Shown here: positions 1,637 through 19,080 of the stretch, piece by piece
Layout: each line of letters opens with the position of its first letter
Numbering within the stretch: position 1 is the first letter of the stretch
Virus record (IMG/VR): IMGVR_UViG_3300023174_000057
Location: 1-64,000 of that record
Length of the DNA stretch: 64,000 nt
Source of the DNA: a virus
Reading direction: 5' to 3' (one strand)
Program-made: the position numbers and the translations under genes
The notes under the pieces: model-generated
Seen by the model: the letters and a program-made list of their open reading frames with translations, nothing else
Told to the model about the DNA's origin: nothing
Database searches by the model: none

Positions 1637-1638
1637 CC

Positions 1639-1854: not shown

Positions 1855-1908
1855 CCGGGGGGAGGGGGGCACAAGAAATCCACCCCCCGCCCCGCGTGAC
1901 CACCCGGT

Positions 1909-1945
1909 CGATTCCCGGTTACACCCACCCCCACCCCTCCGTGGT
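1909..1945 (+). promoter_or_regulatory. class I phage promoter-like motif (GATTCCCGGTTACA-N~15-CCGTGGT), identical 37-nt copy at 2235-2271
   Basis: Motif recurs about 16 times, usually ending 6-9 nt before a start codon. Confidence 0.75.
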
Positions 1946-1951
1946 ACGGGC

Positions 1952-2227
1952 ATGAACGCCACCACCGCCACCGCCGCCGTCGAGACCGCCCTCCGCGAGG
2001 AGATCCGCGACCGCGAGTTCGCCCTCGCGGACAAGGAGCGGGAGCTCGCCCGCATCAAGACCGCCCTCCTCGCCGCCCTCGCTCGGCTCGACAAGGGGAT
2101 GGAGGAGGCTCCCGCCCGTGCGGTGGCCATCGCCACCAACCCGGCCCTCGCCGGGGACGTGGAGGCGGGCATCCGCACGGGGCTCCTCAAGGGCCTCGCG
2201 ATGGACGTGCGCGGGATCGTGTCCTGA
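1952..2227 (+). CDS. hypothetical coiled-coil protein
   Basis: ORF with phage-like codon bias behind the class I motif. Confidence 0.7.
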   Translation: MNATTATAAVETALREEIRDREFALADKERELARIKTALLAALARLDKGMEEAPARAVAIATNPALAGDVEAGIRTGLLKGLAMDVRGIVS

Positions 2228-2277
2228 CCAGTGACGATTCCCGGTTACACCCACCCCCACCCCTCCGTGGTGACAGC

Positions 2278-2508
2278 ATGACCCCCAAGTCCAAGATCGA
2301 GTACGCCCGCGCAGTCGCCACCGCCGCCCTCGCCCACCACGCGACGGCAAAGACCACGGTTGCCCAGACCGTGGCGGACGCCGTCACCTACGGGCGCGCC
2401 GAGGCGGGGCGCGAGGCCCTCGCCTACGAGCTTGGCATCCGCGCTTACCAGACCGAGTGTCTGGAGCGGGAGCTCCAGCGGGTGCTCGACATCCTCACGG
2501 CCAAGTGA
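2278..2508 (+). CDS. hypothetical protein
   Basis: ORF behind the class I motif. Confidence 0.7.
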   Translation: MTPKSKIEYARAVATAALAHHATAKTTVAQTVADAVTYGRAEAGREALAYELGIRAYQTECLERELQRVLDILTAK

Positions 2509-2852
2509 GGGAGTGAGGGACGGGGGTGACCCCCACCCGTCCCACTCGGGGTGGGGCAAGAAATCGGTTTTTCCCAGTGATCTCGTTGACTTGGGGGCAG
2601 GGGTGTGACGGGGCCACCCGCCTAAAACCGTATAGTAAACTGAACGGGTGTCCACTACTGGTCAAAATAGCTGTGTTGAGCCCGCATTGAAAATGGCACC
2701 CCTCAAAGGGAAAGACGTTTGGGAAGGCCATTCCCAGACGGTGAGGCAGGGCGCTCCGCGCCGCGCCAGACCGAGAGACGGATGACGGACGGGGGAGGCG
2801 GACGGGGGAGACGGACGGGAGAGACGGATGACGGACGGGTTCCCCCGCGCGA

Positions 2853-3113
2853 CCCCCCTTCGGTGGGACAAGGGGTGTTCTCCCACGGACCCCCCCTTCG
2901 GTGGGACAAGCCCCCTCTCTGGGGGCGTAACGTGCCTCATGGGCTACCGGGTTCTGACGGGCGATTGCCGAGAGACGCTCAAGACTCTGGGGGACGGGAC
3001 CGTCCAGTGCGTGGTGACCTCGCCCCCGTACTGGGGCTTGAGGGATTTGACCTGTTGGGTGAGTTCTCCAAGTAGGGTTCCCCCGGAACGACCCCCTTCG
3101 GTGAGACAAGGGG
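2853..3113 (+). repeat. three copies of ACCCCC(C)TTCGGTG(G/A)GACAAG
   Basis: Copies near 2852, 2889 and 3091. Confidence 0.7.
2939..3047 (+). pseudogene. N-terminal fragment of an N4/N6 DNA methyltransferase
   Basis: MGYRVLTGDCRETLKTL...VQCVVTSPPYWGLRD (SPPY motif IV); similarity then ends. Confidence 0.7.
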
Positions 3114-3156
3114 CCTTTTCCTGTTACGGGGTGGGGGGTGTCTCCGTGGTGGGGTC

Positions 3157-3429
3157 ATGGAAGCGACGTGCGGCGTCAAGTACAGGCTCACGAACGGCAC
3201 TCTCGACCTCGTGCGGGTGGTGAGCCCCACGGGTCGTGGGGTCACCGTCCGTGGTGGTGGCATCCCTGCCACGGTCGCCCGGAAGGTGCTGGGGTCGGGT
3301 GCGAAGCTCTTCGACACCCGGGTGGACCTGTGCGGCACCCGTGTGTACGAGCTCGATTGGTACGAGGGCACCATGTCTCTCACCTACGGGGAGATGCGGG
3401 CGGTGTTGGTGGCGGCGGGGTGTTGGTGA
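3157..3429 (+). CDS. hypothetical protein
   Basis: Behind the class I motif; first gene of a coupled operon. Confidence 0.65.
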   Translation: MEATCGVKYRLTNGTLDLVRVVSPTGRGVTVRGGGIPATVARKVLGSGAKLFDTRVDLCGTRVYELDWYEGTMSLTYGEMRAVLVAAGCW

Positions 3430-3569
3430 TGGTAGTGGTCCGTGGGGGTTCCTACCGCTACCGCTACGGGGTGATGGTTCGGGCGGCGAAGGTTTGCAAG
3501 GAGCCTCCCGAGTCGCTCGACCGGGAGCCCGGGTTCCGCACCCGCCTACCTGTGAGGCAACCGAGATGA
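3429..3569 (+). CDS. FGE/CLec C-terminal-segment mini-protein 1 (46 aa)
   Basis: MVVVRGGSYRYRYGVMVRAAK...PGFRTRLPVRQPR; TGATG overlap with the upstream gene. Confidence 0.7.
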   Translation: MVVVRGGSYRYRYGVMVRAAKVCKEPPESLDREPGFRTRLPVRQPR

Positions 3570-3736
3570 CCAAGAACGGCAACGAGTCACCGATCTTGGG
3601 CGTTCGCGGCGGCAACTGGGACAACGACCGTGGGTTCTATGTGCGGGTGTCGTTGGAGGAGATTCAGTTTGGCTCCCAGCTTCGGGGCACGGACACGGGT
3701 TTCCGCACCTCCCTCTCTGCGAGGCAACCGAGATGA
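3566..3736 (+). CDS. FGE/CLec C-terminal-segment mini-protein 2 (56 aa)
   Basis: VRGGNWDN...TGFRTSLSARQPR; ATGA overlap. Confidence 0.75.
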   Translation: MTKNGNESPILGVRGGNWDNDRGFYVRVSLEEIQFGSQLRGTDTGFRTSLSARQPR

Positions 3737-3888
3737 ACACCCCGTACTTCCGCATCCGAGGGGGATGCTTGATCACCCGCGATCCGTGGTGGGTTCGCCC
3801 TGCGCTCGACACCCCACAGAAGGCTGACGTGAACATCAACAGTCTCGGGTTCCGCACCCATCTCCCTGCAAGGATGCCCCGCGTATGA
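3733..3888 (+). CDS. FGE/CLec C-terminal-segment mini-protein 3 (51 aa; not in ORF track)
   Basis: MNTPYFRIRGGCLITRDPWWVRPALDTPQKADVNINSLGFRTHLPARMPRV; ATGA overlap. Confidence 0.75.
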   Translation: MNTPYFRIRGGCLITRDPWWVRPALDTPQKADVNINSLGFRTHLPARMPRV

Positions 3889-4058
3889 GCGCCACCAAAC
3901 TTCGAGAAGAATCCCACCTTGTTCTTCATGGGGGTTCTTGGAACCGCACGGGTACCCGCACCTTGCGTGCCGACTTCCAAGGTGGGGAGCGACCCGCGCA
4001 TTTCGACGACTGTCTGGGGTTCCGCACGATGCTGCCGGGGCGTAAGGCACGGACATGA
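3885..4058 (+). CDS. FGE/CLec C-terminal-segment mini-protein 4 (57 aa; not in ORF track)
   Basis: MSATKLREESHLVLHGGSWNRTGTRTLRADFQGGERPAHFDDCLGFRTMLPGRKART; ATGA overlaps on both sides. Confidence 0.75.
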   Translation: MSATKLREESHLVLHGGSWNRTGTRTLRADFQGGERPAHFDDCLGFRTMLPGRKART

Positions 4059-4591
4059 AGCTCATCGTCTTGGAAGGCTGCGACGGCACGGGCACGAGCA
4101 CCAACGCGAAGAAGTTGGGGGAGGCCCTCCAGCGCGAGGGCTACAAGACCCTCGTCTACCACCACCCCCCGCACCGTCCGGGTGGGGGTGACTGGGAGCG
4201 GTCCCTGCACTACGCGAGGGAGAGGGCCGAGATGGCCACCCGCACGGCGGACGACACGGTGGTGGTGGCGGACCGCTGGGTGTCCAGCACGGATGCGATT
4301 GCCATGACCCTCGACGGCGAGGTTCGTGGGAGGCTGCTGGGTCTCACTGCACTGGAGAGGCAGTCTCTCCCGACCCCCACGCTCATCGTCCTGCTCGACG
4401 CCCCCGACGCGGTGCTGGACGAGAGGCTCACGGCCCGTGGCGAGTCTCCCCCTCCGCAACGAGGTGAGCTTCGTCGGGTGTACCGGGAGAGCATCACCAT
4501 GACGTGCGACGTGACGGTGAACACGGCGGGAGATAGCGGTCGGGTGTCTGACCGTCTGTTGTCCTTGGCCAAGGCTGCACTGGAGGACTGA
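4055..4591 (+). CDS. tmk: thymidylate kinase-like protein
   Basis: IVLEGCDGTGTST P-loop (Lys replaced by Thr), VVADRW and LLDAP motifs. Confidence 0.8.
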   Translation: MKLIVLEGCDGTGTSTNAKKLGEALQREGYKTLVYHHPPHRPGGGDWERSLHYARERAEMATRTADDTVVVADRWVSSTDAIAMTLDGEVRGRLLGLTALERQSLPTPTLIVLLDAPDAVLDERLTARGESPPPQRGELRRVYRESITMTCDVTVNTAGDSGRVSDRLLSLAKAALED

Positions 4592-4592
4592 C

Positions 4593-4877
4593 ATGAGCAA
4601 GGGTCTACCGAGGGTCTGGAAGGCGACGGTCACCTACGAGGTGTACGTTCTCTCACACCGCGCCGACGAAGCAGCGGACTGCGCCAAGCTGAACCGGGAC
4701 TGCTACGCGGACATCGAGCACACGGGGGTGTCCAGCGCCGTGGTGGTGACGGACATCGGGTCCGTGGAAGACCCGACGAGTCTCCCGTGGGTGGCGATGG
4801 ACGTGAAGAACCCCGACCACAGGGAAGACATCACCGTGCGCGAGTGGCTGGAGCGCATCAAGGGAGAAGAGAAGTGA
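4593..4877 (+). CDS. hypothetical protein (paralog of next gene)
   Basis: VYV...LPWV...DITVREW pattern shared with 4874-5209. Confidence 0.65.
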   Translation: MSKGLPRVWKATVTYEVYVLSHRADEAADCAKLNRDCYADIEHTGVSSAVVVTDIGSVEDPTSLPWVAMDVKNPDHREDITVREWLERIKGEEK

Positions 4878-5209
4878 GCGAACCGAAGCTGTACCGGGTG
4901 AGAATCGAAGCCGACGTGTACGTCGTCGCGGCCAGCGAGCACGACGCCGAGGAGTACGCCCTGCGGGAGAGTGACGTGGTGGACGACGCGATGGAGCACG
5001 CCGAAGCCACGGCTTCCGTCGTCACGGCGAAGAGTCTGAGCGGCGCGGAGGAGAACTGCCTCCCGTGGGTGGACGACGACTTGGAAGACGGCGAGGTTGA
5101 CCGGGACCGCACGGTGAAGGCGTGGGCGGAACTGAACGACGCCGCCACGGCCCAAGCCAAGCGCGAGCGTGAGTTCAACGCCAAGCAACTGAACATCCCG
5201 GGGACGTGA
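4874..5209 (+). CDS. hypothetical protein (paralog of previous gene)
   Basis: GTGA-coupled; VYV...LPWV...DRTVKAW. Confidence 0.65.
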   Translation: MSEPKLYRVRIEADVYVVAASEHDAEEYALRESDVVDDAMEHAEATASVVTAKSLSGAEENCLPWVDDDLEDGEVDRDRTVKAWAELNDAATAQAKREREFNAKQLNIPGT

Positions 5210-5424
5210 TGCGAACCTACCACATTCGCATGATGGACGACTACGGGTGGACCTTGGGGAAGGTATCCCCCGACGCGCCCAACAACAGCGCCGTTCTCAC
5301 CGTCGAGCGCGACGGCACCCGCTGGATCAGCCAAGTCAACGTGGACCGCCTGTCCATCGCAGACCTTTCCTCCCTCGCGGAGTTCTGCGCGCACGCGAAG
5401 CTCGACACTGGGCGCGGGACGTGA
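5206..5424 (+). CDS. hypothetical protein
   Basis: Coupled ORF. Confidence 0.55.
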   Translation: MMRTYHIRMMDDYGWTLGKVSPDAPNNSAVLTVERDGTRWISQVNVDRLSIADLSSLAEFCAHAKLDTGRGT

Positions 5425-5654
5425 CCGTGGCCGTGACCGTAGAAGACCTCCGAACGCTGATCGGGGACGTGCTGTTCCAACGGGGTTATGGTTCGTGGTC
5501 CTTCGACCCGTACACGCGGGATCACGAACCCGGTTGGCACTACGTCCAAGTGGACGCCCGTTCCTACGACGTTCGTAGGCTGACGGTCAACGAGCGGGGT
5601 CGTACGGAAGCCGAAGCCTTGCGGGGTGTACTGGACTCCCTTGGAGTACCGTGA
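5421..5654 (+). CDS. hypothetical protein
   Basis: GTGA-coupled ORF. Confidence 0.55.
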   Translation: MTVAVTVEDLRTLIGDVLFQRGYGSWSFDPYTRDHEPGWHYVQVDARSYDVRRLTVNERGRTEAEALRGVLDSLGVP

Positions 5655-5913
5655 ACCTAGATCAAGCCCGAGCTCTGACCGCACGGTTCCCCGCCTATTC
5701 CCCGCCCCCCGTAGCGGGCTCCCGGTAGCGGTGGTTTCTGCCGCTTCCCACCGCGCACCGTCCCCTGAAGCCGAGCGGCGACAGGGGGGTGGGCTGGGAG
5801 CCCGCCGCCGACAAGGCTGACCTCCGGGCGTTGATGGATCGGATGTTCCCGCCCCGCTAGTATCCCTGTTGACGCCCGTACTCGACGAGTGAGCCCACAC
5901 CCGGAGCTAAACG

Positions 5914-7122
5914 ATGCCCCACGATCCCTTCCAAACCCCCGATCTCAACGACGTTCACCGCCGCATCCTCGACGCGGTGGGGTTCAAGGTACCGGCGTCG
6001 GCCAACCTCGACGATGCCCGCGATGCGCTGGAGGACCACTACCTCGCGATGAAGCGGGGGCCGGAACGGGACCGTTTTGAGACGGCCTTCACGCTGATGA
6101 TATACGGAGACGTGGTGGACGGAAAACCCGAGAGTCAAACCCAATCGAAGATCCGAGCACTGGAGCAGTCGGGGAAGACGGCTCACTCACGGAGACAAGA
6201 GATGAAGAAGAAGTCCAGCGAGCGCGGTGCCGGGTCTGACGGCAACTACATGACCAAGCAGAACTTGTGGCTGCTGCACCGGATGACGGAGCTCCTGTAC
6301 AAGGGCATCCCGGACGGTGTGCTCCTGCCTGATTGGGCTGAGTCCAAGATCAACAGCGCCGCCGACCACATCAAAGCCGTGGCGGGCTGGGCGATGCACG
6401 AGTCCCACGGGGATGACCTCCACCCCGCCCCGGAGGAGAACCCGATCCACCTCGGTGACCGGCACCTCCGTGCGGGCCTCATCCGTCTGGCTCACGCCAA
6501 CCCAGAACTTCGTCCGCACCTCCTCCCCCTTCTCACCAAGGTGGCAGCGGAGGAGGTGAACGTCCCCGGCAAGCACATCCTCGACAATGCCACGGTGTAT
6601 GGCGAGGCCGAGGTGTCAGGCGGTGCCAAGGTGTATGACGACGCCAAGGTGCGGGGCGGTGCCAAGGTGTCTGGCACTGCCGAGGTGAAGAACAACGCCG
6701 AGGTGTTGGGTAATGCCAAGGTGTCAGGCACCGCCCATGTGTATGGCAACGCCAAGGTGTTTCACAAATCAAAGGTGTATGGCGGTGGCCGTGTGTTTGG
6801 CTATGCCAAGGTGGGAGACTTGGCCGAGGTGTATGGCGAGGCCGAGGTGTATGGCACCGCCGAGGTGTATGGCACCGCCAAGGTGTATGAGGATGCCAAG
6901 GTGTATGGCACCGCCGAGGTGTATGATGGTGCCGAGGTGTATGGCACCGCCGATGTGTTTGGCGCTGCCAAGGTGTATGGCACCGCCAAGGTGTATGGCA
7001 CCGCACAGGTGTATGGCGAGGCCGAAATCAGTGGGACCGCAATCATCACGGGCGGTGAGTGGGACGGGTCGGAAGGCCCGATCACCAAAGGTAAGTGGAA
7101 GTCTCCCGGCGTTCCCGCCTGA
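5914..7122 (+). CDS. composite protein: N-terminal domain, internal LRxxLIRLAH tag, hexapeptide-repeat left-handed beta-helix
   Basis: Tag at about 6466-6546, then about 25 VYG(T/N/E)A(K/E)-type repeats (6583-7050). Confidence 0.8.
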   Translation: MPHDPFQTPDLNDVHRRILDAVGFKVPASANLDDARDALEDHYLAMKRGPERDRFETAFTLMIYGDVVDGKPESQTQSKIRALEQSGKTAHSRRQEMKKKSSERGAGSDGNYMTKQNLWLLHRMTELLYKGIPDGVLLPDWAESKINSAADHIKAVAGWAMHESHGDDLHPAPEENPIHLGDRHLRAGLIRLAHANPELRPHLLPLLTKVAAEEVNVPGKHILDNATVYGEAEVSGGAKVYDDAKVRGGAKVSGTAEVKNNAEVLGNAKVSGTAHVYGNAKVFHKSKVYGGGRVFGYAKVGDLAEVYGEAEVYGTAEVYGTAKVYEDAKVYGTAEVYDGAEVYGTADVFGAAKVYGTAKVYGTAQVYGEAEISGTAIITGGEWDGSEGPITKGKWKSPGVPA

Positions 7123-7178
7123 CCCACCGTTTCCCCGCCTATACGCCTTCTCTTGGTTAGGAAGGGTTCCCACACACC

Positions 7179-7451
7179 ATGTCCAGTAATCTCCGTGCGG
7201 GCCTCATCCGTCTGGCTCACGCCAATCCAGAACTTCGTCCGCACCTCCTCCCGCTGCTCAAGGAAGCTGCGAAGGCTCCGGTCAAAATGGAGGCCCGCCT
7301 CATCCAGATCAATGACCGTGTGAAGGACTTTGATGGGTCTTTCCGTGTGGTCAAGACCGTCGAGGTCACCAAAGACTTGGTGAAGGTGACTTTCAAGGAC
7401 GGTGGACGGATCAACGCTGACCCCAACGACATGGTGACCGTTCAGCGATGA
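7179..7451 (+). CDS. tag-bearing small beta-rich (SH3-like) protein
   Basis: MSSNLRAGLIRLAHANPELRPHLLPLLKEAA N-terminus. Confidence 0.8.
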   Translation: MSSNLRAGLIRLAHANPELRPHLLPLLKEAAKAPVKMEARLIQINDRVKDFDGSFRVVKTVEVTKDLVKVTFKDGGRINADPNDMVTVQR

Positions 7452-7672
7452 GCGATCAAGCTCACCGTTCCAAGGTCATCGCCCGACGCTTCACTGGAGG
7501 GTGAGCTCCTCGCCCCGCCAAATGGGCAACAGCCCGCACTTGGCACAGGCAGGGAGCTTCCCGCTCGCACGCATCGCACGGCGCAGTACCGCCCCGCCCG
7601 TGTCCGTCCCCTCGGGATGGAGACACAGCACCTCGGACAACGGCTTGGCAGGACGCCCACGCTTACGGGAGG

Positions 7673-7999
7673 TCAAAGGGACCCCCCCTCCTTCCAACCC
7701 ATCGGCAGAACCTCCACCACCTTGCCGTACACGGTGGTGGTCCAACCGTTGTCATGCCCGTGGTTGTTCCCGATGAGAACACCCCGGTCCGCGTTCACCG
7801 CCTTCACCAAGTGCGTGTACACATTCCCACGCACCCGGCAGTAGGCGATGTCCCCCACGACGAGGTCTTCCCATCGACACGGGGCGATCCGAACAGGCTG
7901 GCGGGATTGAATGAGAGGGAGCATGGAGTTACCGGGCTCACGCGAGACCACGGTCTCCCCACGCTGCAAGGCTTCGATCTTGTAGTTGGGTACTGACAT
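7673..7999 (-). CDS. peptidase S24/S26-like protein
   Basis: GNSMLPLI...GDI...THLVK Ser/His-type pattern. Confidence 0.65.
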   Translation of the reverse strand: MSVPNYKIEALQRGETVVSREPGNSMLPLIQSRQPVRIAPCRWEDLVVGDIAYCRVRGNVYTHLVKAVNADRGVLIGNNHGHDNGWTTTVYGKVVEVLPMGWKEGGSL

Positions 8000-8017
8000 G
8001 AAGGACGTTACGCCCGG

Positions 8018-8470
8018 TCAAACCACCTCCCGAACCACCACGCCCCAGAACGGCGGAAACCCCGCGTCCATCATCGACTCGATACGGGCGTGCATCGCCC
8101 GGATCGCACCTTCCGGCACGCCGTGGGTGTTGCGCGCCGCTGCGACGGCGGGGTCGCACGTCACCCGGACGATGGTGACGGCGTAGCCGTAGGCGAGGGC
8201 CAGCGAGACGTAGGGGGCCATCTCCAAGCTGGTCGTGTTGGTGTTGTCCACGACGACGTGGGCCTCGCCCCGTTGAAGGGCCTCCGTGTACCTGCGAAGG
8301 CACTGGCCGTGGGCCGCGCCGAGCTTGGTCGGGTCGAAGGCGTAGGTGCCCCCGCCCAACTCCACGAAGTAGTGGTCGGCGGACACCACCACCGCGCCCG
8401 TGAGGGACGCCGTGTGGTGAGATTTGCCGCTGCCCGGGACGCCCACGAGGATGGTGACGGTGGTGGTCAT
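8018..8470 (-). CDS. P-loop kinase (AAA_33 / polynucleotide-kinase-like)
   Basis: GVPGSGKS, VSADHYF, VVVDNTN, RNTHGVP. Confidence 0.85.
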   Translation of the reverse strand: MTTTVTILVGVPGSGKSHHTASLTGAVVVSADHYFVELGGGTYAFDPTKLGAAHGQCLRRYTEALQRGEAHVVVDNTNTTSLEMAPYVSLALAYGYAVTIVRVTCDPAVAAARNTHGVPEGAIRAMHARIESMMDAGFPPFWGVVVREVV

Positions 8471-8607
8471 GCTCTCCCCACGGAGACGGTGGGTGTGGTG
8501 TAACAGGAAATCGTTGGTGGTCATGCTCTGTAGACGCGGGCGGGGCGGGGATGCTGACAGCGATTTCTTGTCCGCCCACGGCGGGGGGTGAGTGGCCCCC
8601 CGGCACC

Positions 8608-9012
8608 TCACAGGGAGGCCAGCTTGGCCTCGACCTCGTCGAAGTGGGCCGCAGCCTTGGGACGCCAAGCCGTGAGGAACCGCTTGGCCGACTCCAAGGT
8701 GACCCTAAGCGCCCGGGCGCACTCTTCCCAAGTGTCGATGGGGCTCACCCCCGTCGCTTTGGCCAATCCCTCTCGGAACGTGCCCGTCTCCCAGCCGTCC
8801 ACCCCCGCGATGGTACGGACCCCCGTGGCGAGCACCAGACGGAACGTGGTGTTGCTCCACTTCCCGTTCTTTTCAAACGAGGTGCCGCGCACCACCACGG
8901 TGCCGGGGATGTCCGTCCCCTTGAAAGGGAGAACCTCACCCGCCGTGATGACGAGGAGCCACTGCCCGCGCCCACGGGGGCGCATTCCGTCGTTCCATTC
9001 GATGTTCGTCAT
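8608..9012 (-). CDS. hypothetical protein
   Basis: Behind the class I motif on the minus strand. Confidence 0.7.
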   Translation of the reverse strand: MTNIEWNDGMRPRGRGQWLLVITAGEVLPFKGTDIPGTVVVRGTSFEKNGKWSNTTFRLVLATGVRTIAGVDGWETGTFREGLAKATGVSPIDTWEECARALRVTLESAKRFLTAWRPKAAAHFDEVEAKLASL

Positions 9013-9021
9013 GCCAGCACC

Positions 9022-9059
9022 ACGGAGGCGGGGTCGGGGCTGTAACCGAGAATCGTCAC
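9022..9059 (-). repeat. 38-nt direct repeat containing the class I promoter; partner at 10409-10446
   Basis: 37/38 identity; the pair flanks the FGE scaffold plus mini-gene module. Confidence 0.85.
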
Positions 9060-9229
9060 CGGGTTTGTCTTACCGGGAGGGCGCACCGAAAACCGAGGCC
9101 GTAGCTACGGTCCGCAGGCCCGTACGCGTAGCGAGACGCGGCGCGCACCCACGACGGTACGCTGTCGTTCCAACCGCCGCCGCGGTAGACGCGGAGACGG
9201 GTGTCCGTGGGCTTGGTGGTGGGGTTCAC
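9056..9229 (-). CDS. FGE/CLec C-terminal-segment mini-protein 7 (57 aa)
   Basis: RVYRGGGWNDSVPSWVRAASRYAYGPADRSYGLGFRCALPVRQTR; GTGA overlap. Confidence 0.8.
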   Translation of the reverse strand: MNPTTKPTDTRLRVYRGGGWNDSVPSWVRAASRYAYGPADRSYGLGFRCALPVRQTR

Positions 9230-9393
9230 GTTCGGGGTTCCCTTCCCCGCAACGCGCACCGAAACCCCAAGGCGCTGCCACGGTAAGCAGGCACGAGCGC
9301 GTTGCGAGACGCGGCGCGCACCCACGACGGTCCGCTGAAGTTCCAACAGCCGCCGCGAAAGACGGTGTCGGCGGGCTTGGTAGGGGGCTTCAT
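9226..9393 (-). CDS. FGE/CLec C-terminal-segment mini-protein 6 (55 aa)
   Basis: VFRGGCWNFSGPSWVRAASRNALVPAYRGSALGFRCALRGREPRT; ATGA overlap. Confidence 0.8.
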   Translation of the reverse strand: MKPPTKPADTVFRGGCWNFSGPSWVRAASRNALVPAYRGSALGFRCALRGREPRT

Positions 9394-9566
9394 ACTCGGG
9401 GTTCCCTTACTGACAGGTGGGTGCGAAAACTCATGTTGGTTTCGCGCCACTCGGGCTCGTACGAGCCCCGGTTGTCGGGCCGCATGAACGGGGCGTAGGA
9501 GAGTCCCCAACCGCCGCCCACCAGTACGCGGGGGAGGTTGGGGTCCGGGGGCTGTGCCCGTCTCAC
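9390..9566 (-). CDS. FGE/CLec C-terminal-segment mini-protein 5 (58 aa)
   Basis: GTG start overlaps the scaffold TAG (TAGTG); RVLVGGGW...MSFRTHLSVREPRV. Confidence 0.7.
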   Translation of the reverse strand: MRRAQPPDPNLPRVLVGGGWGLSYAPFMRPDNRGSYEPEWRETNMSFRTHLSVREPRV

Positions 9567-10387
9567 TAGTGGACGGTGCTGGTCCACTCCCAGACGTTGC
9601 CGCTCATGTCGAGCAGCCCGTAGGGGGAGGCACCCTTGGGGCGGGCGGGGGTGCCGTCCGGGTTGAAGCACGGCGCGGTGCGCTCCTTCTGGGAGTGAAT
9701 GCTCGACCAGCAGAGCTCATCCTTGGGGGCGTCGTTGCCCCACGGAAACTTGCGCCCGTCGTTGCCGCGCGCGGCGCGCTCCCACTGTTCCTCCGTGGGG
9801 AGGCCCACCCCCGCCCACTTGGCGAACTCACGGGCGTCCCAGTAGGACACCTCGACCACCGGGTGGTCGCTCAGGTCCACCGTCGCGCCCGACTTGTCCG
9901 TGACGGTGGTGGGCTTGAGCTCCTTGCCCATGTCCGTGGCGTACCAGTTCCACTGGCGCACGGTCGTGGGCGTGAGGGCCATGAAGCCCGCTTCGACGTT
10001 GACCGCCTTTCGGGACTGCGACTCGTCGTCGCCCATCGTGAACCCCACCGCTGCCTCGACGTAGCAGAGGGGCAGGGTGTTCCCATCGGGCAGCACATGG
10101 TTGACGACCCACGTCCCGCCGACCTCGCGGTTGGTGGGCCATTCCAGCACCACCTCGCCCGCTTCGATGCGGGGGCGCGGCACCACCCCGTAGACGGGGT
10201 GGTAGTGGAAGCTCCACACCTCCGTCGCCGTGAGCACCCGGAGGGCGGTGATTCCCTCCGGGAGGTTGAGGGTGGTCACCACCCCGACGACCTCGTCGGG
10301 GTGGTCGCTCTTGGGGAGGGGGTTGCTGGGCTCGTAGTCGAGCCAGCCCCCGCGCTCCCCCTCGCAAAAGCACACTTGGATCTTCAT
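9566..10387 (-). CDS. FGE-sulfatase (SUMF1/CLec-fold) domain protein lacking its C-terminal segment
   Basis: FTMG, HPVVEVSYWDA, LPTEEQWERAARG, FPWG, YGLLDMSGNVWEW, then stop after five residues. Confidence 0.9.
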   Translation of the reverse strand: MKIQVCFCEGERGGWLDYEPSNPLPKSDHPDEVVGVVTTLNLPEGITALRVLTATEVWSFHYHPVYGVVPRPRIEAGEVVLEWPTNREVGGTWVVNHVLPDGNTLPLCYVEAAVGFTMGDDESQSRKAVNVEAGFMALTPTTVRQWNWYATDMGKELKPTTVTDKSGATVDLSDHPVVEVSYWDAREFAKWAGVGLPTEEQWERAARGNDGRKFPWGNDAPKDELCWSSIHSQKERTAPCFNPDGTPARPKGASPYGLLDMSGNVWEWTSTVH

Positions 10388-10513
10388 ACCTCACTCCTTA
10401 CGCCCCCAACGGAGACGGGGTCGGGGCTGTAACCGAGAATCGTCACGAAAAGATTCGACCCCAAGAAGTTTGATTCTTGGTTACGAACGGTGGACGCTCT
10501 CCGTGGTGTGGGC

Positions 10514-10654
10514 ATGGCACCTCTGGGAGTTCGTTCCAAGTACGACATCGCTTCCACCTCTCGCGCGGAGGTGAAGGCCCGCGCCAAGGCGGGTCGGTCC
10601 CGCGCCCGTCAAGCCGCCCGCAAGGCGGTGAAGGCGGCGGTGGCCGAGGGTTGA
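10514..10654 (+). CDS. 46-aa basic Ala/Arg/Lys-rich protein (not in ORF track)
   Basis: MAPLGVRSKYDIASTSRAEVKARAKAGRSRARQAARKAVKAAVAEG, directly behind a class I motif. Confidence 0.6.
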   Translation: MAPLGVRSKYDIASTSRAEVKARAKAGRSRARQAARKAVKAAVAEG

Positions 10655-10767
10655 CCGTCCCGGGGCGGGGTGCTCCCCCGCCCCTTCCGCTGCCATCCAA
10701 GTTCTTGGTGTGGGGGTGGGGCTCCCACGGAGAACTTGGGTGCCCCACCCCTCGCGGGGCCGAGCCC

Positions 10768-10962
10768 TCACTCGGGCTCGATGGGCTCGTTCACGTCGTA
10801 CTCGTTGTACGGGCGCAGGATCTCCGGGCGGTACCGGGCGAGCTTCTCGTCCCGGCACAGGTCACAGACCCGGCAGAGCTCGATGCCCCGCCCATCCGTG
10901 GCCCACCAACTGGGCTCCTTGGACGGGTACCCGCCCACGCAAGCGTGCTCGCGGGGGGTCAC
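10768..10962 (-). CDS. small Cys-containing phage protein
   Basis: DGRGIELCRVCDLC...LARYRPEIL; GTGA-coupled. Confidence 0.6.
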   Translation of the reverse strand: MTPREHACVGGYPSKEPSWWATDGRGIELCRVCDLCRDEKLARYRPEILRPYNEYDVNEPIEPE

Positions 10963-11297
10963 GCTCCCTCCTCCATGAAGGCGATGAGGGCTCGCACGGT
11001 CTCCTCGCGCCCGTTCCACGAGGACACGGTTCGGGGCCACATGGAGCAGTACTGCCCGTAGCACCCCTCCGCGCCGGGGACGGCGAGCGCCTGTCCGAGG
11101 GGCGAGCGGTAGTTGCGACGGCGGGACGTGTTGAGCGTCCCCACGGCCTCAACACCGCTGGGGGCGCGGAGGTGCGGCATCGCGCGCCGCACCACGCGCC
11201 ATGCTGCCTCCAGCGCGGTCTCGATGCCCGCCCCGTTGAGACGGGCAATGCGGTAGGAGGCGCGGGCTGCTTCGGGGAGGTTGACTTCGGTGTTCAT
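10959..11297 (-). CDS. hypothetical protein
   Basis: Behind the class I motif. Confidence 0.65.
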   Translation of the reverse strand: MNTEVNLPEAARASYRIARLNGAGIETALEAAWRVVRRAMPHLRAPSGVEAVGTLNTSRRRNYRSPLGQALAVPGAEGCYGQYCSMWPRTVSSWNGREETVRALIAFMEEGA

Positions 11298-11402
11298 GCC
11301 CTCACCACGGAGACAGGGGTTCCCCCGTAACCAAGAATCGAAGTTCTTGGGCTCCCCGACGATTCCCGGTTACAGCCGAGGGGTCGGTTCCGTGGTGGGG
11401 GC

Positions 11403-11684
11403 ATGACCGCGTTCACCTTCGCCGTCGAGCCCACCTGTCGTTTCGTGGGCGGGGCCGTCACCACCTTCTGGTCGGTGGTGGCGACTGCCCGTGACGGTCG
11501 GCGCTTCCGCCACGACCATGCGGTGTCCGTCAAGGCGCTGGTGGAGCGGGCTCCCGAGAGCATCCGGGCGCTGCGGGACCGCATCGCGGCGTCGGGCATC
11601 TCCCCGGTGGGCCGCGCCCATTGGGAGGAGGTCGCCCCCGTCGTCGGGTCCAAGGCTCACTTCGCCCGCAACCCCCGAGGGTGA
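11403..11684 (+). CDS. hypothetical protein
   Basis: Behind the class I motif. Confidence 0.65.
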   Translation: MTAFTFAVEPTCRFVGGAVTTFWSVVATARDGRRFRHDHAVSVKALVERAPESIRALRDRIAASGISPVGRAHWEEVAPVVGSKAHFARNPRG

Positions 11685-11743
11685 TCCCGGTTCTTGGTTA
11701 CACCCCCACAAGTGCCTCCGTTGGTGAGGCGTAAGGAGACCCC

Positions 11744-12109
11744 ATGAGGACAAAGTCCATCGAGCAGGCCACCAAGGCTGAACACACCGCCCCCGCCCCC
11801 GTTACCGTGCTGGAGTACCAGCCGGGGAACGGCACCCGGTACCTCCTGCACATCACCGACCTTCGGGCGCTTTCCGAAGCGCCCCCGCAGGTCACAGCGT
11901 ACGCGGGTCACGGCGCGTACTACGTCGCCCTCTACACCCAAGGCCACGGAACCTGTATGACGGTCGCGGACACGGGCGGGTACCTCGCCCCATCCTACGT
12001 CGCCGCGAAGCTCAAGGTGAGCGAGGGCGATGCGGTGGTGCTCGCGGAGATCATCGCCCGGTACACGGGCCGCACGGCGGACGACGCCAGCGTGGACGTG
12101 GCGTCGTGA
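11744..12109 (+). CDS. hypothetical protein
   Basis: Class I motif plus AAGGAG SD. Confidence 0.7.
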   Translation: MRTKSIEQATKAEHTAPAPVTVLEYQPGNGTRYLLHITDLRALSEAPPQVTAYAGHGAYYVALYTQGHGTCMTVADTGGYLAPSYVAAKLKVSEGDAVVLAEIIARYTGRTADDASVDVAS

Positions 12110-12456
12110 ACCGCAAGCTCGTTCATAACGAGGGCGAGATCGTCGCCCTTGTGGTATCTGTCCTTGGGGAAAGGAACCCCGAGGCCCTCGAAGCCATGCT
12201 GGGGGTCGAGTTCGCCTACGCGGACGGTCGCTACCCCAGTGACCTCGAAGACGCCACCCCCTACGATGGGGACTGGTCGTGGCAGGACCAGCCCGTGGAC
12301 TTCACCACCTACCGCCGCGGCGAGGAGCCCTACTTCCCCGCGACGTACCCCGCCTTGGCCCTGTACAGCTTCAACGATGACTTCGACCGGGGCGGGTCGG
12401 TGAAAACGCGGTTGCTCCTCTACGTCGAGCGCCATGAACTGGAGGGGGCGTCGTGA
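12106..12456 (+). CDS. hypothetical protein
   Basis: Coupled ORF. Confidence 0.6.
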   Translation: MNRKLVHNEGEIVALVVSVLGERNPEALEAMLGVEFAYADGRYPSDLEDATPYDGDWSWQDQPVDFTTYRRGEEPYFPATYPALALYSFNDDFDRGGSVKTRLLLYVERHELEGAS

Positions 12457-12632
12457 GCGGGCCTAGCTTCTTCCAGACCCTCATGGGGAGGGTGTACTAC
12501 GAGGGCACCCTCCCGAGGCTCGTGCGGGCGCTGGAGCGCATCGCGGACGCCTTGGAGGCCCAGAACAGCACGCTCCCCTTGCGTGAGAGCGCCCCGCCCG
12601 TCGAGACTCCCGCCCCACGTCCCGGTGGTTGA
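12453..12632 (+). CDS. 59-aa hypothetical protein (not in ORF track)
   Basis: MSGPSFFQTLMGRVYYEGTLPRLVRALERIADALE; GTGA-coupled. Confidence 0.6.
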   Translation: MSGPSFFQTLMGRVYYEGTLPRLVRALERIADALEAQNSTLPLRESAPPVETPAPRPGG

Positions 12633-12672
12633 TTCTTGGTTACAACCCCAAACCGCCCTTCGTGGTGCAGTC

Positions 12673-12900
12673 ATGACTCTTGAAGACATCGTCATCGCTG
12701 GCCGCGCCCACGACACCGCCCGCATCCTCGCGGGTGAGCGCCTCCCCTGCGCCGCGTGTGGCGAGGGGGACGTGGGGCTGACCCCCTGCACTGCGTGTGG
12801 TACCAACGCCGCCGACAGCGGCATGGTCCTGCACGAAGCATTGGGGCTCCCGCTCCCCGCACCCCTGTTTGAACCGTGGTGCGGGTTCATCAATGACTGA
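12673..12900 (+). CDS. small CxxC-CxxC zinc-ribbon protein
   Basis: CAACG...CTACG; class I motif upstream. Confidence 0.6.
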   Translation: MTLEDIVIAGRAHDTARILAGERLPCAACGEGDVGLTPCTACGTNAADSGMVLHEALGLPLPAPLFEPWCGFIND

Positions 12901-13675
12901 GTACGCCTACCGGGACGTGTCGCGCCTTGGGCCGTACCGGGAGGACCCCGTGCGGCACTACGGCTTGGCGGTGGACATCTCCCGGGGGTTCACCTGCCTC
13001 CACCTTGAGCGGTCGGACATCGAACAGGAAGCGTTGACGGCGCTCTGTGCCGCTGCCCGCACCTTCGACCCCGACCGGGGGTACGCCTTCAGCACTTGGG
13101 CGGGGCGGCTCATTCGCAACCACCTGTCGGGGGTGGTGCATTTCTACCGCCGGGTGGGGATGACGGGCACACGGAACCAGCGTGGGCTGAGTCGCGGGTT
13201 GCGGCGGCACCTTCGGGAAGGGGGCAGTTGCGAGGCAAGCACGGTGCGGATCTTCCTGCGGGAGAACCGCCACTGGGCGCACCCCACGGATTGGGACTGC
13301 TTCGTCGCGGCCTCCATGTACCTTCACCCCGAGTCCTCCCTTGACGAGACATGGGACCACCGTGAGGGGGTGGACTCCCCGGGTGCGAAGATCCCACGGC
13401 ACGAGACGGTGGAAGACCCGAGGCTGTTGCAGGACATCGAAGACCAGATGCGCGCGGGCGATATCGAGCGGGCGGTGGGGAAGGCCCTTGGGAAGCTGCG
13501 CCCAAGGGAGCGGGAGATCGTGACGCGCCGGGTGCTACCTGATCTCGTCGGTGAGGGGGACACCGTCCCGACGCTCCAAGAAATGGCCGACGAGTGGGGG
13601 GTCACCCGTCAGCGCGTTCAACAAGTCGAGGCCGACGCGATGGGGAAGCTCCAACGGGCTCTGTCCCGGGCGTAA
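12893..13675 (+). CDS. sigma-70 family RNA polymerase sigma factor
   Basis: Region 2 (DIEQEA...FDPDRGYAFSTWA) and region 4 (LRPREREI...TLQEMADEWGVTRQRVQQVE). Confidence 0.9.
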   Translation: MTEYAYRDVSRLGPYREDPVRHYGLAVDISRGFTCLHLERSDIEQEALTALCAAARTFDPDRGYAFSTWAGRLIRNHLSGVVHFYRRVGMTGTRNQRGLSRGLRRHLREGGSCEASTVRIFLRENRHWAHPTDWDCFVAASMYLHPESSLDETWDHREGVDSPGAKIPRHETVEDPRLLQDIEDQMRAGDIERAVGKALGKLRPREREIVTRRVLPDLVGEGDTVPTLQEMADEWGVTRQRVQQVEADAMGKLQRALSRA

Positions 13676-13708
13676 CCCGGTTACAAGCCCCACGGTGTCT
13701 CCGTTGGG

Positions 13709-14473
13709 GTGATGGAGACTGCAATGGACATCCCCCGCCAGCCCAAGGAGACGCTCAAGCAACTGGTTCGCGATGTAATCGCGAACCAAGTGCTGTTTTC
13801 GTCGTCCGTTCCCGACAACCTCGTCCACATGGTGTTCCTGCCCTTGGCGATGGGCGGGTTGCGGTACCCCGTGGACGAGCCCGAGCTCCCCAAGGAGCCC
13901 GCGAAGCCCGTGCGGGGTTTCACCCGCCCGAAGCGCCCGGAGCCCGACGTGGGTGCGGCGCGCGAGGGTCTGAAGGCGGCGGTGGCGGAAGCCCGCGAGG
14001 CTCTCGCCCGTGCCGAGTTCCGTGCCCGCTGGGGCGAGGTGGAGGACAGTGAGGTAGAAGCTGCCCGTGAGGCTCTCTCCCGCGCCGAAGACGCCCTGCG
14101 GGATGCCGAGGGGTCAGCGAACCGTGCTGCGGACGCTGCCCATGAGGCGGCACTCACCGAGTACCGGGCGAACCTCTCAGGGCACCGTGCGAAGCTGGCC
14201 GAGTGGCGCGGGCGGATGAAGGTGTGGCGGGAGGCGTGCGACGCCCTCCAGACCAAGGTGAAGGAGTGGGAGGCGGGGCGGGACGCCCACTTCGACAAGC
14301 TGAAGTCCGACCTTGGTGTGGTCTACGGCTACTACAAGGACTCCATGGGGGGACGTGCGATCAACGGCTTCCCGATGCTGGCGTCGTGCGCCCTCCTCCA
14401 CCGTGAGGATTGGGCGTTGGTGAGGGCGGCGATTGGCCGGGAGCTCGACCGACAGAAGGAGATCGAACTGTGA
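13709..14473 (+). CDS. hypothetical coiled-coil protein
   Basis: Class I motif upstream; long helical region. Confidence 0.7.
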   Translation: MMETAMDIPRQPKETLKQLVRDVIANQVLFSSSVPDNLVHMVFLPLAMGGLRYPVDEPELPKEPAKPVRGFTRPKRPEPDVGAAREGLKAAVAEAREALARAEFRARWGEVEDSEVEAAREALSRAEDALRDAEGSANRAADAAHEAALTEYRANLSGHRAKLAEWRGRMKVWREACDALQTKVKEWEAGRDAHFDKLKSDLGVVYGYYKDSMGGRAINGFPMLASCALLHREDWALVRAAIGRELDRQKEIEL

Positions 14474-14651
14474 GGGAAAATCCATGAGGGGCATCGTCGG
14501 AAAAGTTCGGTATGGGGTGGCGCTGGGCGTGTTGGGGGTGTCTGCGACCCTGTGGGGGATTGCCACGGCGGCGGCGGTTCTGGGCGTGTTGACCGCGACG
14601 GCGATTTCGTCCGATGCCGTGTTCGACCAGATGGGCTGAGGAGGGTGTGCG

Positions 14652-15104
14652 ATGGATGAACTGAAGAGCGTGTTGGAGGTGTGCCTCTCTCTGCAAGAGC
14701 GGTTGTCCGTGAAGGACGCTGACCTCAAGTCGCAGAACGACAAGGTTCTGGCCCTGTGCGCGGAGCTCGACGAGCTCCACGCACTGGTAGACCGTCAGCG
14801 GACGATCCTCACGGGCGTGGCCAACGCCCTTCGGGGCAATCCCCCACCGTTGGCGTCACACAGCCACCACGACCTCGCGGAGAGGGCGGCGGGGGTGGTC
14901 GAGGGGGCGCGGGGGATGCGGGATGCGATTCGTGAGTGGTGGAGGTCCGAGGAGACCCTCCGCATGACCCCCACCCAAGACCAGAGCTCGGAGCGGGAGG
15001 CGGCGGAACAACACACGAAAGCCCTTCATGCGCTTCAAGAGGTCGCCCGCCGTATCAACGAGGGCATGGAGCGCGAAATCGCAAAGGCTTTCGGGGTCCT
15101 GTGA
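14652..15104 (+). CDS. hypothetical coiled-coil protein
   Basis: GAGG SD; helical. Confidence 0.65.
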   Translation: MDELKSVLEVCLSLQERLSVKDADLKSQNDKVLALCAELDELHALVDRQRTILTGVANALRGNPPPLASHSHHDLAERAAGVVEGARGMRDAIREWWRSEETLRMTPTQDQSSEREAAEQHTKALHALQEVARRINEGMEREIAKAFGVL

Positions 15105-15227
15105 TGGCCCCGTGCCGGGATTGCCGTCCGGGTTTCGTGTGCGACCCGTGCGTCCGTAGGTTCCCCCGCGTGTACCTTCCGCCGGGTGAAGAACGGGCGC
15201 GTGTCCTTCGTGAACTGGAGAAGAACC

Positions 15228-15551
15228 GTGAATGACGTGATCGAACGTGTGCAGGGGGTGCTGTGCGACATCGAACGCTTGCAAGAGGCCGGGGTGCTTC
15301 TGCGGCGCGTGGCGGTCCACCTCCCTTTCCGCAGGTATGAGCTTCTGGGCTACCCGGAACGGCAACACCCCGACGCTCTGTCGAGCGTGATCGACTCCCT
15401 TGAACGGGCGGTGGAGATGCACCGTCGTCTAGAGTCCCTGTACGTCTACAGCGGCGCTTACAAGTACCCCGACGAATACGAGCGGACGCCCGAGAGCGAA
15501 CGGGTGTGGTCTGACGTGAAGCGGTACTTTCGGTTCGATGACAGCGAGTGA
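15228..15551 (+). CDS. hypothetical protein
   Basis: Coupled ORF. Confidence 0.5.
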   Translation: MNDVIERVQGVLCDIERLQEAGVLLRRVAVHLPFRRYELLGYPERQHPDALSSVIDSLERAVEMHRRLESLYVYSGAYKYPDEYERTPESERVWSDVKRYFRFDDSE

Positions 15552-15777
15552 GTTGGACTTCGGCGCGGCGTGCCGGGAGATCACGGACCTCGTGGCCCGC
15601 GATTACCCCGGCGCGGCACCTTCGCAGTTCCGCGTGGTGCTGGAGTGGGAGGACGGGGCGTGGTGCGCCTTCGTTCGCACCCGGTCTTCCGGCACCCGCA
15701 TCTACCCCGTCGGGCACCCCACGGCACAGGGCGCGCTTGACCGGCTTCGGGACTATTACCGAAAACGCCTACGGTAG
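15538..15777 (+). CDS. hypothetical protein
   Basis: Overlapping ORF in operon. Confidence 0.5.
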   Translation: MTASELDFGAACREITDLVARDYPGAAPSQFRVVLEWEDGAWCAFVRTRSSGTRIYPVGHPTAQGALDRLRDYYRKRLR

Positions 15778-15780
15778 ATA

Positions 15781-15803
15781 CCCTATGCCCCGTGCGGGGC
15801 ATG
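15781..15803 (+). promoter_or_regulatory. class II (late-type) motif CCTATGCCCCGTGCGGGGCATG; near-identical at 18538-18560 and 19061-19083
   Basis: TAT lies 17-19 nt before the start codon at many late genes; no SD. Confidence 0.7.
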
Positions 15804-16163
15804 AGCGACCTACGTTCCAAAATCATTCGGCTGGCTCACCAGCAGCCGCATCTCCGTCCGCAGCTTCTCCCTCTCCTCAAGGCGGCGGGCAATCTGGGCG
15901 AAGAGCTCAACCCGTACCTTCTGGAGTTCGACAAAGTGCCCGCGTCCGAGGAGGACATGGAAGAGGCCCAAGAGAACCTCGACAACGCGAGCAACGACCT
16001 CCAAGGGATCGTGGAGGACACGTCGCGAAATGTCGCGGCCTTGGTAAAGAAGGCCCTTCGGGAGAGCGGCAAGTTCAACAAGTTCTTCAGCGGGGGGAGC
16101 GCCGAACTGTTCCACGACGATCTCGTCGCTTCGGTGATCTCGGCGGTCCACAACGCCAAGTGA
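15801..16163 (+). CDS. tag-bearing acidic helical protein
   Basis: MSDLRSKIIRLAHQQPHLRPQLLPLLKAAG. Confidence 0.8.
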   Translation: MSDLRSKIIRLAHQQPHLRPQLLPLLKAAGNLGEELNPYLLEFDKVPASEEDMEEAQENLDNASNDLQGIVEDTSRNVAALVKKALRESGKFNKFFSGGSAELFHDDLVASVISAVHNAK

Positions 16164-16193
16164 TCGTTGGGGGAGTTATACCCCGCACGGGAC

Positions 16194-17555
16194 ATGGACT
16201 TCCTCCGTTCCCGCGTCATCCGGCTCGCTCATCAGAACCCCGCTCTCCGTCCGCACCTCCTGCCTCTGCTTGCTTCGGGCGTAAGGGCTGTCATGGCAGG
16301 GAACCATGTCGAGCTCACAGAGGCCAACGGGATGGTGTACGTCACGGGGCCGTACCACCTCATGGCCGAGAACGTGAACCCGCGACTGAAGTCGCAGGGG
16401 TTCCGTTGGGACGGCGGCGCGCGTCGGTGGGAGCTCCCCGCCGCCAAGCTCACGCCCATCAAGCGCAAGAACTTGATGAAGATCATCGAGCCCCTCACGG
16501 CTGCGGGGGCGGCATCCACGGGCACGGATCTCCGTTCTCCCAAGCAGAAGATCGAAGACGAGATGCTGCGTCGGCGCGTGGAGGGGTGGTGCATCGACCT
16601 CCCCTACGACCTTGGGGAGAAGGCCAAGTCTCTGGGGGGTCTGTGGAACCCCACCACCCGGCTCTGGTGTATGCCCGACAAGGCGGCGCTGGATACCCTC
16701 CGCGAGGCCATCAACCAGACGCCCAAGATGGTGGCGCTGCGGGAGATCGCGCGGCGCAAGGCCGAGCGTCTGGGGGTGAACATCCCCTACGAGTACAAAG
16801 ACGAAGCCAAGTCTCTGGGGGGCCTCTGGGATCAGGACACCCGCACTTGGTATATGCCCGACACGTCCACCAAGCAGAAAGTGCTCGACAAGGTCGAGGC
16901 CGACCAAGAGCAAGCCCGACAGGTGGCGCTCCGTCACATGGAGCAGGAGCGGGAGCGGGTCGAAGCCGAGAGGAAGCGTCTGGGCCTCAAGACCTACTAC
17001 GAGCCGGGATACTCGCGTGGCGACCACCCGGCTGTCGGCCAGACCTTCAAGGATCGGAAGACGGGCGAGTTCATGGTAGTGACCGACGTGAAGTCGGTGT
17101 TCTATCGGGAGGACGGTCTGTCCTTCGGGCTTCCCGACGACACGGGATGGATGCACACGATCACGGCCAAGCCCGCCGAGGACGAGACGGCCATCCAAAG
17201 CATCAAGGACCGGGAGCAGCAGGAGCTCACCGTGGCCCAAGCCCGCACTCGTCGCAAGGAGCTCGCCAAGATGTTCCGCGACCGTGGGGACTTTCCGACG
17301 ACCGAAACGGACCTCCGACGTGAGGACCGTCTGGTGCTCTCTGGCCGGAACTCCGTCGCCTACGGCGGCGGGGATTGGTTCGTGATCACCCCGTCCCACA
17401 TCTGGTTCGTTCAGAACAACGGCGGGGACGGCGACAACTGGGGGTCGAACAACGTCGTCACGGGTGGCGCGGGCGCGATGGGCTGGAGGATGCCCCGCAC
17501 GGATGAACTGGTGGGCGAGCTCCAGCAACTCGACACCCTCATCGGTGAACGCTAG
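16194..17555 (+). CDS. tag-bearing protein with DUF5710-like repeats
   Basis: MDFLRSRVIRLAHQNPALRPHLLPLL; two (L/I)PYxxxxxAKSLGGLWxxxTRxWxMP repeats. Confidence 0.8.
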   Translation: MDFLRSRVIRLAHQNPALRPHLLPLLASGVRAVMAGNHVELTEANGMVYVTGPYHLMAENVNPRLKSQGFRWDGGARRWELPAAKLTPIKRKNLMKIIEPLTAAGAASTGTDLRSPKQKIEDEMLRRRVEGWCIDLPYDLGEKAKSLGGLWNPTTRLWCMPDKAALDTLREAINQTPKMVALREIARRKAERLGVNIPYEYKDEAKSLGGLWDQDTRTWYMPDTSTKQKVLDKVEADQEQARQVALRHMEQERERVEAERKRLGLKTYYEPGYSRGDHPAVGQTFKDRKTGEFMVVTDVKSVFYREDGLSFGLPDDTGWMHTITAKPAEDETAIQSIKDREQQELTVAQARTRRKELAKMFRDRGDFPTTETDLRREDRLVLSGRNSVAYGGGDWFVITPSHIWFVQNNGGDGDNWGSNNVVTGGAGAMGWRMPRTDELVGELQQLDTLIGER

Positions 17556-17579
17556 GGGGTCTATCCCCGGGGGCGGGTG

Positions 17580-18526: not shown

Positions 18527-18557
18527 CTCGGTAGATGCCCTATGCCCCGTGCGGGGC

Positions 18558-19040: not shown

Positions 19041-19080
19041 CTACCCCCGACCGTTGATTGCCTTATACCCCGTGCGGGGC

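Follow-up and report, generated by a model that had tools for sequence, protein, structure and literature searches.

A truncated FGE-type CLec gene and stand-alone variable-region genes with bacterial DGR templates in a 272-kb phage

Scaffold I and its mini-genes

The window analysed here, which covers the opening 64 kb of a virus record of 166,764 nt (G000), carries on its minus strand a gene for an FGE-type CLec protein, scaffold I, followed by a chain of three very small genes (minis); two further mini arrays lie elsewhere in the window (Table 1).

Table 1. Position of the scaffold, the minis and the upstream motif in the window
Feature	Position	Strand	Description
Scaffold I, 273 aa	9566..10387	(-)	~100-aa beta-rich N-terminal domain + FGE-type CLec domain without C-terminal VR segment
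Promoter-like phage motif upstream of scaffold I	10396..10446	(-)	one of 18 genome copies; promoter role inferred
Mini m1, 58 aa	9390..9566	(-)	old, diverged; 27/75 non-A differences from TR1; conserved among strains
Mini m2, 55 aa	9226..9393	(-)	young class-1 VR; 16/24 A vs 2/75 non-A differences from TR1
Mini m3, 57 aa	9056..9229	(-)	young class-1 VR; 14/24 A vs 1/75 non-A differences from TR1
Mini a1, 46 aa	3429..3569	(+)	old, diverged
Mini a2, 56 aa	3566..3736	(+)	old, diverged
Mini a3, 51 aa	3733..3888	(+)	old, diverged; conserved in 6 cluster members
Mini a4, 57 aa	3885..4058	(+)	old, diverged; conserved in 10 cluster members
Mini b1, 53 aa	35143..35304	(-)	class-1 VR, intermediate age; 12/75 non-A differences
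Mini b2, 57 aa	34973..35146	(-)	young class-1 VR; 16/24 A vs 2/75 non-A differences

Scaffold I ends in GNVWEWTSTVH*, its stop lying five residues past the GNVWEW motif. A profile search matched it to positions 14-192 only of the 255 of PF03781 (E 2e-31), in agreement with the preliminary description, according to which the gene stops after GNVWEW and lacks the final segment of the domain. Its predicted structure reached a pLDDT of 92.6. The N-terminal domain gave no match to a known family or in the Atlas, and neither a signal peptide nor a fibre domain was found in the protein.

The window TAG at 9566-9568 is an AAG-to-TAG variant located one codon ahead of a TGA that is found clade-wide, and the window junction therefore has two consecutive stops (TAG, then TGA). 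An assembly error at this TAG, which had been named as a possible refutation, is ruled out by the clade-wide truncation and by its recurrence in three independent contigs, 99.96-100% identical to the window, that carry the scaffold I protein (P0382). More than 40 phage homologues with 45-87% identity keep the truncation and end 5-8 residues past GNVWEW, so that the conserved stop which was to be sought in related phages does exist; among bacteria, truncated FGE domains were found in 0 of 83 cases. In a quick tree, the 20 scaffolds sampled form one clade on a long stem, separate from the bacterial FGE domains (SH-aLRT 99). As judged by sequence comparison alone, the split of the scaffold from the mini segment is old and real. 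The split scaffold/mini system was found in no GenBank phage, and two distantly related jumbo phages (485 and 257 kb) lack it.

The next copy of the promoter-like motif after the one upstream of scaffold I, at 9009-9059, would open the following transcription unit if the motif is a promoter as inferred, and the 38-nt repeats bracketing the module are two of its copies. This motif (18 strict copies genome-wide) precedes small clustered genes, at 1276-12682, 24873 and 36307 in the window. Scans for sigma-70 promoters and for terminators found nothing.

The nine minis of the window (46-58 aa) carry the GGxW...(G/S)FR signature, and the best of them match PF03781 positions 207-254; compared with TvpA, they match 252-291. 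They correspond to the final 45 positions of PF03781, but as separate genes. They are chained by ATGA/GTGA start-stop overlaps, and nearly every mini has its own coupled start: the GTG start of m1 overlaps the clade-wide scaffold TGA, and a4 is coupled to a thymidylate-kinase-like gene. Beyond the window lies a fourth array of seven minis, c0-c6 (G000 65318-66556, plus strand), and a further 13 stand-alone minis (two of them weak), together with one fused copy, are found in the other half of the genome. Counted over the whole 272-kb circle, there are two scaffolds, one fused mini and about 29 minis that stand alone, two of them weak; sizes are 46-68 aa, and most of the minis are located far from any scaffold. 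The positions of the nine mini-ORFs and their chaining, as previously described, were all confirmed, but the total had been undercounted, the phage having about 30. Gene callers miss many minis. Databases contain 841 short mini homologues, and in relatives the arrays near a scaffold reach about 30 minis.

Several outlying cases were encountered. Two distant phages, on a 392-kb contig (L087:10800-20834) and a 171-kb contig (L089:11000-13400), carry highly diverged minis, up to about 30 of them, with no match to either template, and L089 has a TET/JBP gene near its minis. A 1.3-kb contig of a Terriglobia MAG (L110, RGPS01000530) also has minis and is probably mis-binned phage DNA. Elsewhere (L112:6271-6552), a mini lacks its stop and reads into a downstream fragment, giving 93 aa.

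Bacterial templates for phage variable regions

The variable codons of the minis are NNC, and the fixed columns are devoid of adenine. A template pattern was inferred from these codons and then found in a contig of a GTDB MAG, 'uncultured delta proteobacterium KT_bin-2017' (L109). Relative to this template (TR1), the young minis differ at about 45-70% of adenines versus 0-7% of other sites; for m3, c5 and c6, 12-16 of 27 adenines and 2-3 of 93 other sites differ (p 1e-7 to 5e-11). Almost all variable residues of 61 database minis (845/854) can be reached from TR1 by A-to-N changes alone. Adenine retention is 42% and C is the rarest outcome, which resembles single-round bRT mutagenesis (PMC7826257). 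A second class of minis, carried by the same phage, follows a template in another MAG (TR2, L140), from which 0-4 of 72 non-A sites differ. The class-2 template pattern that we had guessed gave no match, and the actual TR2 was reached through RT homologues. A further candidate source, a 1-kb metagenome contig (L107) with an RT end and a TR, was rejected as an unrelated FGE-type DGR.

Most young-mini VRs are followed on their 3' side by a hairpin with a 5-6 bp GC stem and a 7-nt loop, as is the VR of m2. The hairpin of phage DGRs has a 7-10 bp stem and a GRNA loop, which the mini hairpin lacks; the host VRs are also without the canonical form. By their adenine-specific match to TR1 and TR2, the young minis are DGR variable regions of bacterial templates. 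The earlier proposal had likened the minis to the C-terminal segment that forms the variable surface of DGR targets, but it had missed that they are real VRs with templates in bacteria and none in the phage.

This absence was established on a closed genome. The window record and a second IMG/VR record (G002, 105,516 nt) together make up a single circle, of which each is one half: their ends overlap by 369 nt on one side and join within a CobT/vWA gene on the other. Sampled stretches of a 271,727-nt contig (ERZ2680843 NODE_60) are >99.9% identical to both records, and this contig spans the G000/G002 join, the coordinates closing with a 74-nt terminal overlap. Since the two records close as a 272-kb circle, the CheckV completeness of 39% for G000 is too low. 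Neither half contains an RT, whether searched with PF00078 or with a profile built from 120 related DGR RTs, and a scan for bAvd and for AAC-rich templates found nothing in either half. No RT, Avd or TR was found in G000, G001, G002 and four other records, although the ENA contigs of relatives were searched only partly. The TR1 pattern is absent from IMG/VR, where only distant RTs occur. With RT, TR and Avd missing from its closed genome, the phage is not an autonomous DGR of the BPP-1 type.

Other genes of the window deserve mention. A B12-type ribonucleotide reductase with a LAGLIDADG intein is encoded at 43883-46891 (+), the RecA-like gene at 53135-54442 has a phrog_9666 insertion, and a hexapeptide repeat with an 18-nt period, at 5914-7122 (+), specifies a beta-helix-like protein. 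A phage GroEL-like chaperonin (23331-24875, plus strand) could, as a conjecture, help to fold a split domain. A 70-nt repeat (6466, 7191, 15810, 16203, 19090, 20021, 20858, 37358 and 62912) codes for a peptide of about 25 aa common to nine otherwise unrelated proteins, possibly a targeting tag.

On the bacterial side, the 2.5-kb contig with TR1 has a YMDD RT immediately ahead of the template and an FGE target encoded on the other strand; a caspase-FGE target is located elsewhere. L140 carries an RT together with TR2. In two other loci (L138 and L139), bAvd adjoins homologous RTs. The nearest RTs are annotated as Polyangiales, Polyangiaceae and Sandaracinaceae (Polyangiaceae being Myxococcota), have TIR-kinase-FGE and FGE targets, and lie in bacterial loci. 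That the host is a DGR-bearing myxobacterium is an inference from the TR match only. A DNA search of four candidate hosts against positions 1-20000 of the window gave only FGE/VR similarity and short chance matches, with no clear spacer, and no CRISPR or prophage link to a host was found.

Several observations bear on the age of the imprint. Of 702 silent third positions compared in the young minis of several phage contigs, only 33 differ from TR1, whereas ordinary genes have a pS of 0.17-0.22 between such phage strains; this argues that the TR1 imprint is recent. At the fused-mini locus, about ten different TR1-type VRs sit on scaffolds that are at least 90% identical, and between G002 and NODE_60 all ten differences in 21 kb fall in the fused mini. 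Conversely, a1-a4, m1, c0 and every mini of the distant phages have diverged by drift from either template; a dN/dS test of the old minis gave a p of 0.26. In comparisons of near-identical assemblies, the alleles were mostly the same and no clean A-only change was seen at any mini; the one differing patch, a 17-nt block with A and non-A changes, fits either homing or gene conversion.

Two other origins of the imprint have to be weighed. The first is capture: VRs already mutated in host DGR targets would have been recombined into the phage and then multiplied, the split protein remaining as described. Host VRs do share the mini backbone, m3 being 67% identical to the tail of the host caspase-FGE protein, the phage encodes RecA and RecD-like proteins, and its minis recombine actively, as seen from chimeric minis and from duplicates (the VR of m2 is identical to that of c2 at G000 65664). 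However, the mini flanks are phage-specific on both sides, and all 61 database minis are distinct alleles (61/61), which is many for a host with few targets, even if the MAG is incomplete and other targets are possible. Moreover, in eight phage minis the codon just 5' of the VR is the CTC of the template, but it is AAA or AAC in both host VRs; in our view this codon speaks weakly for the template, rather than the host targets, as the source of the copies. Capture thus appears unlikely to us. The two host VRs do have more A-to-C changes than the phage VRs (12/40 against 8/98), which counts against homing from the host DGR.

The second is a relic, left by an ancestral phage DGR that was lost, the minis being frozen since; in a variant, the template would be on an unseen co-infecting element and not on the host chromosome. 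The fact that distant relatives have only diverged minis would fit the former, and the TR1 contig, at merely 2.5 kb, leaves room for the latter. We give both very little credence: at silent sites the minis stay much nearer to two separate bacterial templates than the phages do to one another, one orthologous locus is hypervariable, no RT scar was found in the phage genome, and the contigs with related RT loci are 140-360 kb long and surround these loci with bacterial-type genes. Homing from an external template onto the phage minis, for which there are no read data, remains in our opinion the probable origin of the young minis.

Probable completion of the scaffold by separate peptides

How does a truncated scaffold obtain its final segment? 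One answer would be a single chain, either because a frameshift or readthrough links m1 to the scaffold, or because the minis are silent cassettes for conversion into one expressed copy. The first mini does lie in the -1 frame at the scaffold stop in several phages, there are no translation data, and one mini is fused in frame to a second scaffold. Nevertheless, across phages the junction has neither a conserved frame (it is +1 in L009) nor a slippery site, and one scaffold (L092) has no adjacent mini; a conserved frameshift at the junction is thus rejected and a frameshift fusion unlikely, and in the window two stops would also have to be passed. In silent-cassette systems of the pilS/vlsE type, donors lack their own start and serve one expression site, while the minis come with coupled starts and stops of their own and in scaffold I there is no VR that could be converted, which excludes an identity with such systems. 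The old minis, furthermore, stay open and are conserved among strains. We therefore judge a purely one-chain CLec to be quite improbable, more so than capture.

The fused mini is itself informative. In scaffold II (G002:C1:25340-27107, also present in L009 and L177), a mini is fused in frame at the N-terminus, amounting to a circular permutation, and four more minis flank the gene. This permutant indicates that the VR segment need not follow the GNVWEW strand covalently. Its single-sequence fold prediction, made with no alignment, had a pLDDT of only 35 and carries no weight either way.

A structure model of scaffold I with m3, a check put forward in the preliminary description, docked the mini into the scaffold with a score of 0.95, against 0.00 for the best control; the mark applied to this score was reached by 58 of 80 solved pairs and by 2 of 110 mismatched pairs. 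The model runs agreed in 96% of contacts, the partner had a pLDDT of at least 84, and that of the scaffold rose from 72 to 92. In the model, the GFR strand of the mini packs on scaffold residues 140-141, 176-189 and 265-268. Since scaffold and mini are the halves of a known fold, however, this pass may merely reflect intact FGE folds already familiar to the prediction model; it shows likeness and not binding.

It could also be that the peptides act without the phage scaffold, either by invading or poisoning host CLec sensors through strand exchange or because the arrays soak up host DGR cDNA. Minis and host caspase-FGE and TIR-kinase-FGE proteins have a common template and hence a common fit, and about 30 minis face only two scaffolds. 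Against this, scaffold and minis co-occur across the clade, usually adjacent, and purifying selection acts on the scaffold (pN/pS 0.43) even though it is incomplete alone. It would also, by inference, be unfavourable to displace a core strand that is covalently attached. We find action without the scaffold hardly credible.

Completion of the scaffold by the minis in trans, the two-piece binder originally proposed, is supported by the conserved truncation, the absence of a junction frame or slippery site, the remote minis, the permutant and the complex model. There are no data on translation or complex formation and hence no experimental proof, but we hold this completion in trans to be highly likely.

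Comparison with known DGRs, proposed mechanism and implications

The closest known counterpart is the DGR of Treponema denticola, whose FGE-type CLec1 target TvpA (PDB 2Y3C) is accompanied by seven remote targets (PMC5758913). The phage proteins share with it the FGE-subtype CLec fold, the C-terminal VR, the use of one remote template for several VRs and the lack of an FGE catalytic role. TvpA, however, is a single-chain surface lipoprotein with RT and TR in its own genome, whereas in the phage the domain is split, the VRs are about 30 stand-alone genes of 46-68 aa, and RT and TR are in another organism. The fold and motifs are also those of the formylglycine-generating enzyme (SUMF1) and EgtB. 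In SUMF1, two catalytic cysteines lie in the loop after RGGS; as the minis have a variable, NNC-coded loop at this place, FGE enzyme activity is not expected.

Bordetella phage BPP-1, whose avd, TR and brt work in trans from a plasmid (PMC5758913), offers another comparison. As with its mtd target, the diversified gene is a phage gene, A-to-N retrohoming at AAC codons is the inferred route and a hairpin lies 3' of the VR, here without the GRNA loop. BPP-1 nevertheless encodes the whole cassette and targets its tail fibre, while the present phage has no machinery and its targets, judged from gene context, are not of the virion type: the split gene lies among small early-type genes and has no fibre domain, unlike a single-chain receptor-binding target of the virion. 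The word 'receptor' in the preliminary description, taken in the tail-fibre sense, is thus unsupported, the context suggesting an early cytoplasmic role.

The donor DGRs resemble the clade-5 cellular DGRs in their caspase-FGE and TIR-kinase-FGE targets. Clade-5 DGRs diversify putative antigen sensors in multicellular bacteria, namely Thiohalocapsa PB-PSB1 (PMC10907252) and cyanobacteria (PMC7517822), and have been reported to act in trans on distant targets of the same genome. Their targets, however, are intact host proteins, and the literature, searched in open-access sources only, yielded no phage-encoded targets of this kind, no split CLec and no phage that exploits a host DGR. All DGR targets in the open literature searched are single-chain and in the same genome as RT and template. 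The earlier remark that no described system of this kind was known to its author stands within this scope.

We propose the following sequence of events. On infection of a DGR-bearing host, the host RT would make adenine-mutagenised cDNA that homes onto the minis of the replicating phage. Two findings make such homing in trans plausible: the components of DGRs can act in trans (PMC5758913, PMC10907252), and homing is linked to replication (PMC12875486). Tandem duplication and recombination would then shuffle the minis, and copies no longer matching the template would drift into the old class. Each 6-kDa peptide is predicted, with support from the model, to complete the CLec binding face by placing its GG-W and GFR strands in the scaffold. 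One particle could in this way express dozens of specificities and the population sample far more. Trans complementation and external homing taken together, that is a host-templated, non-autonomous DGR repertoire on a split CLec fold, are in our estimation a fairly likely account of the system.

The function of the complexes is the weakest step. They may be early cytoplasmic binders directed against host defences. An early cytoplasmic role is suggested by the lack of a signal peptide, of a fibre domain and of an FGE catalytic loop, and by the position of the motif before small clustered genes. Binders that neutralise defence proteins or mask phage antigens are favoured because the donor DGRs diversify putative immune sensors (PMC10907252), the host targets of the same template being caspase-FGE and TIR-kinase-FGE proteins of this putative kind. 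A counter-defence role is inferred, with no ligand identified, and could as well prove wrong as right. The fullest version, in which a lytic-type phage parasitises a myxobacterial sensor DGR to obtain an antibody-like, adaptive counter-defence repertoire with different templates per host, is put forward only tentatively, with our confidence leaning slightly against it.

In conclusion, this case points to the use of a DGR across genomes and to a natural two-piece CLec with a swappable 6-kDa variable peptide. Surveys start from the assumption that a phage target must be carried along with its RT (PMC5758913), and RT-anchored searches for DGRs are blind to such a system. If the proposal is true, it would provide a compact peptide-plus-scaffold binder library for engineering and a sequence-based host marker for uncultured phages, as the VR would name the host template. 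It would also be phage-side evidence for an untested idea, namely that the DGR-diversified CLec proteins of bacteria are immune sensors (PMC10907252).
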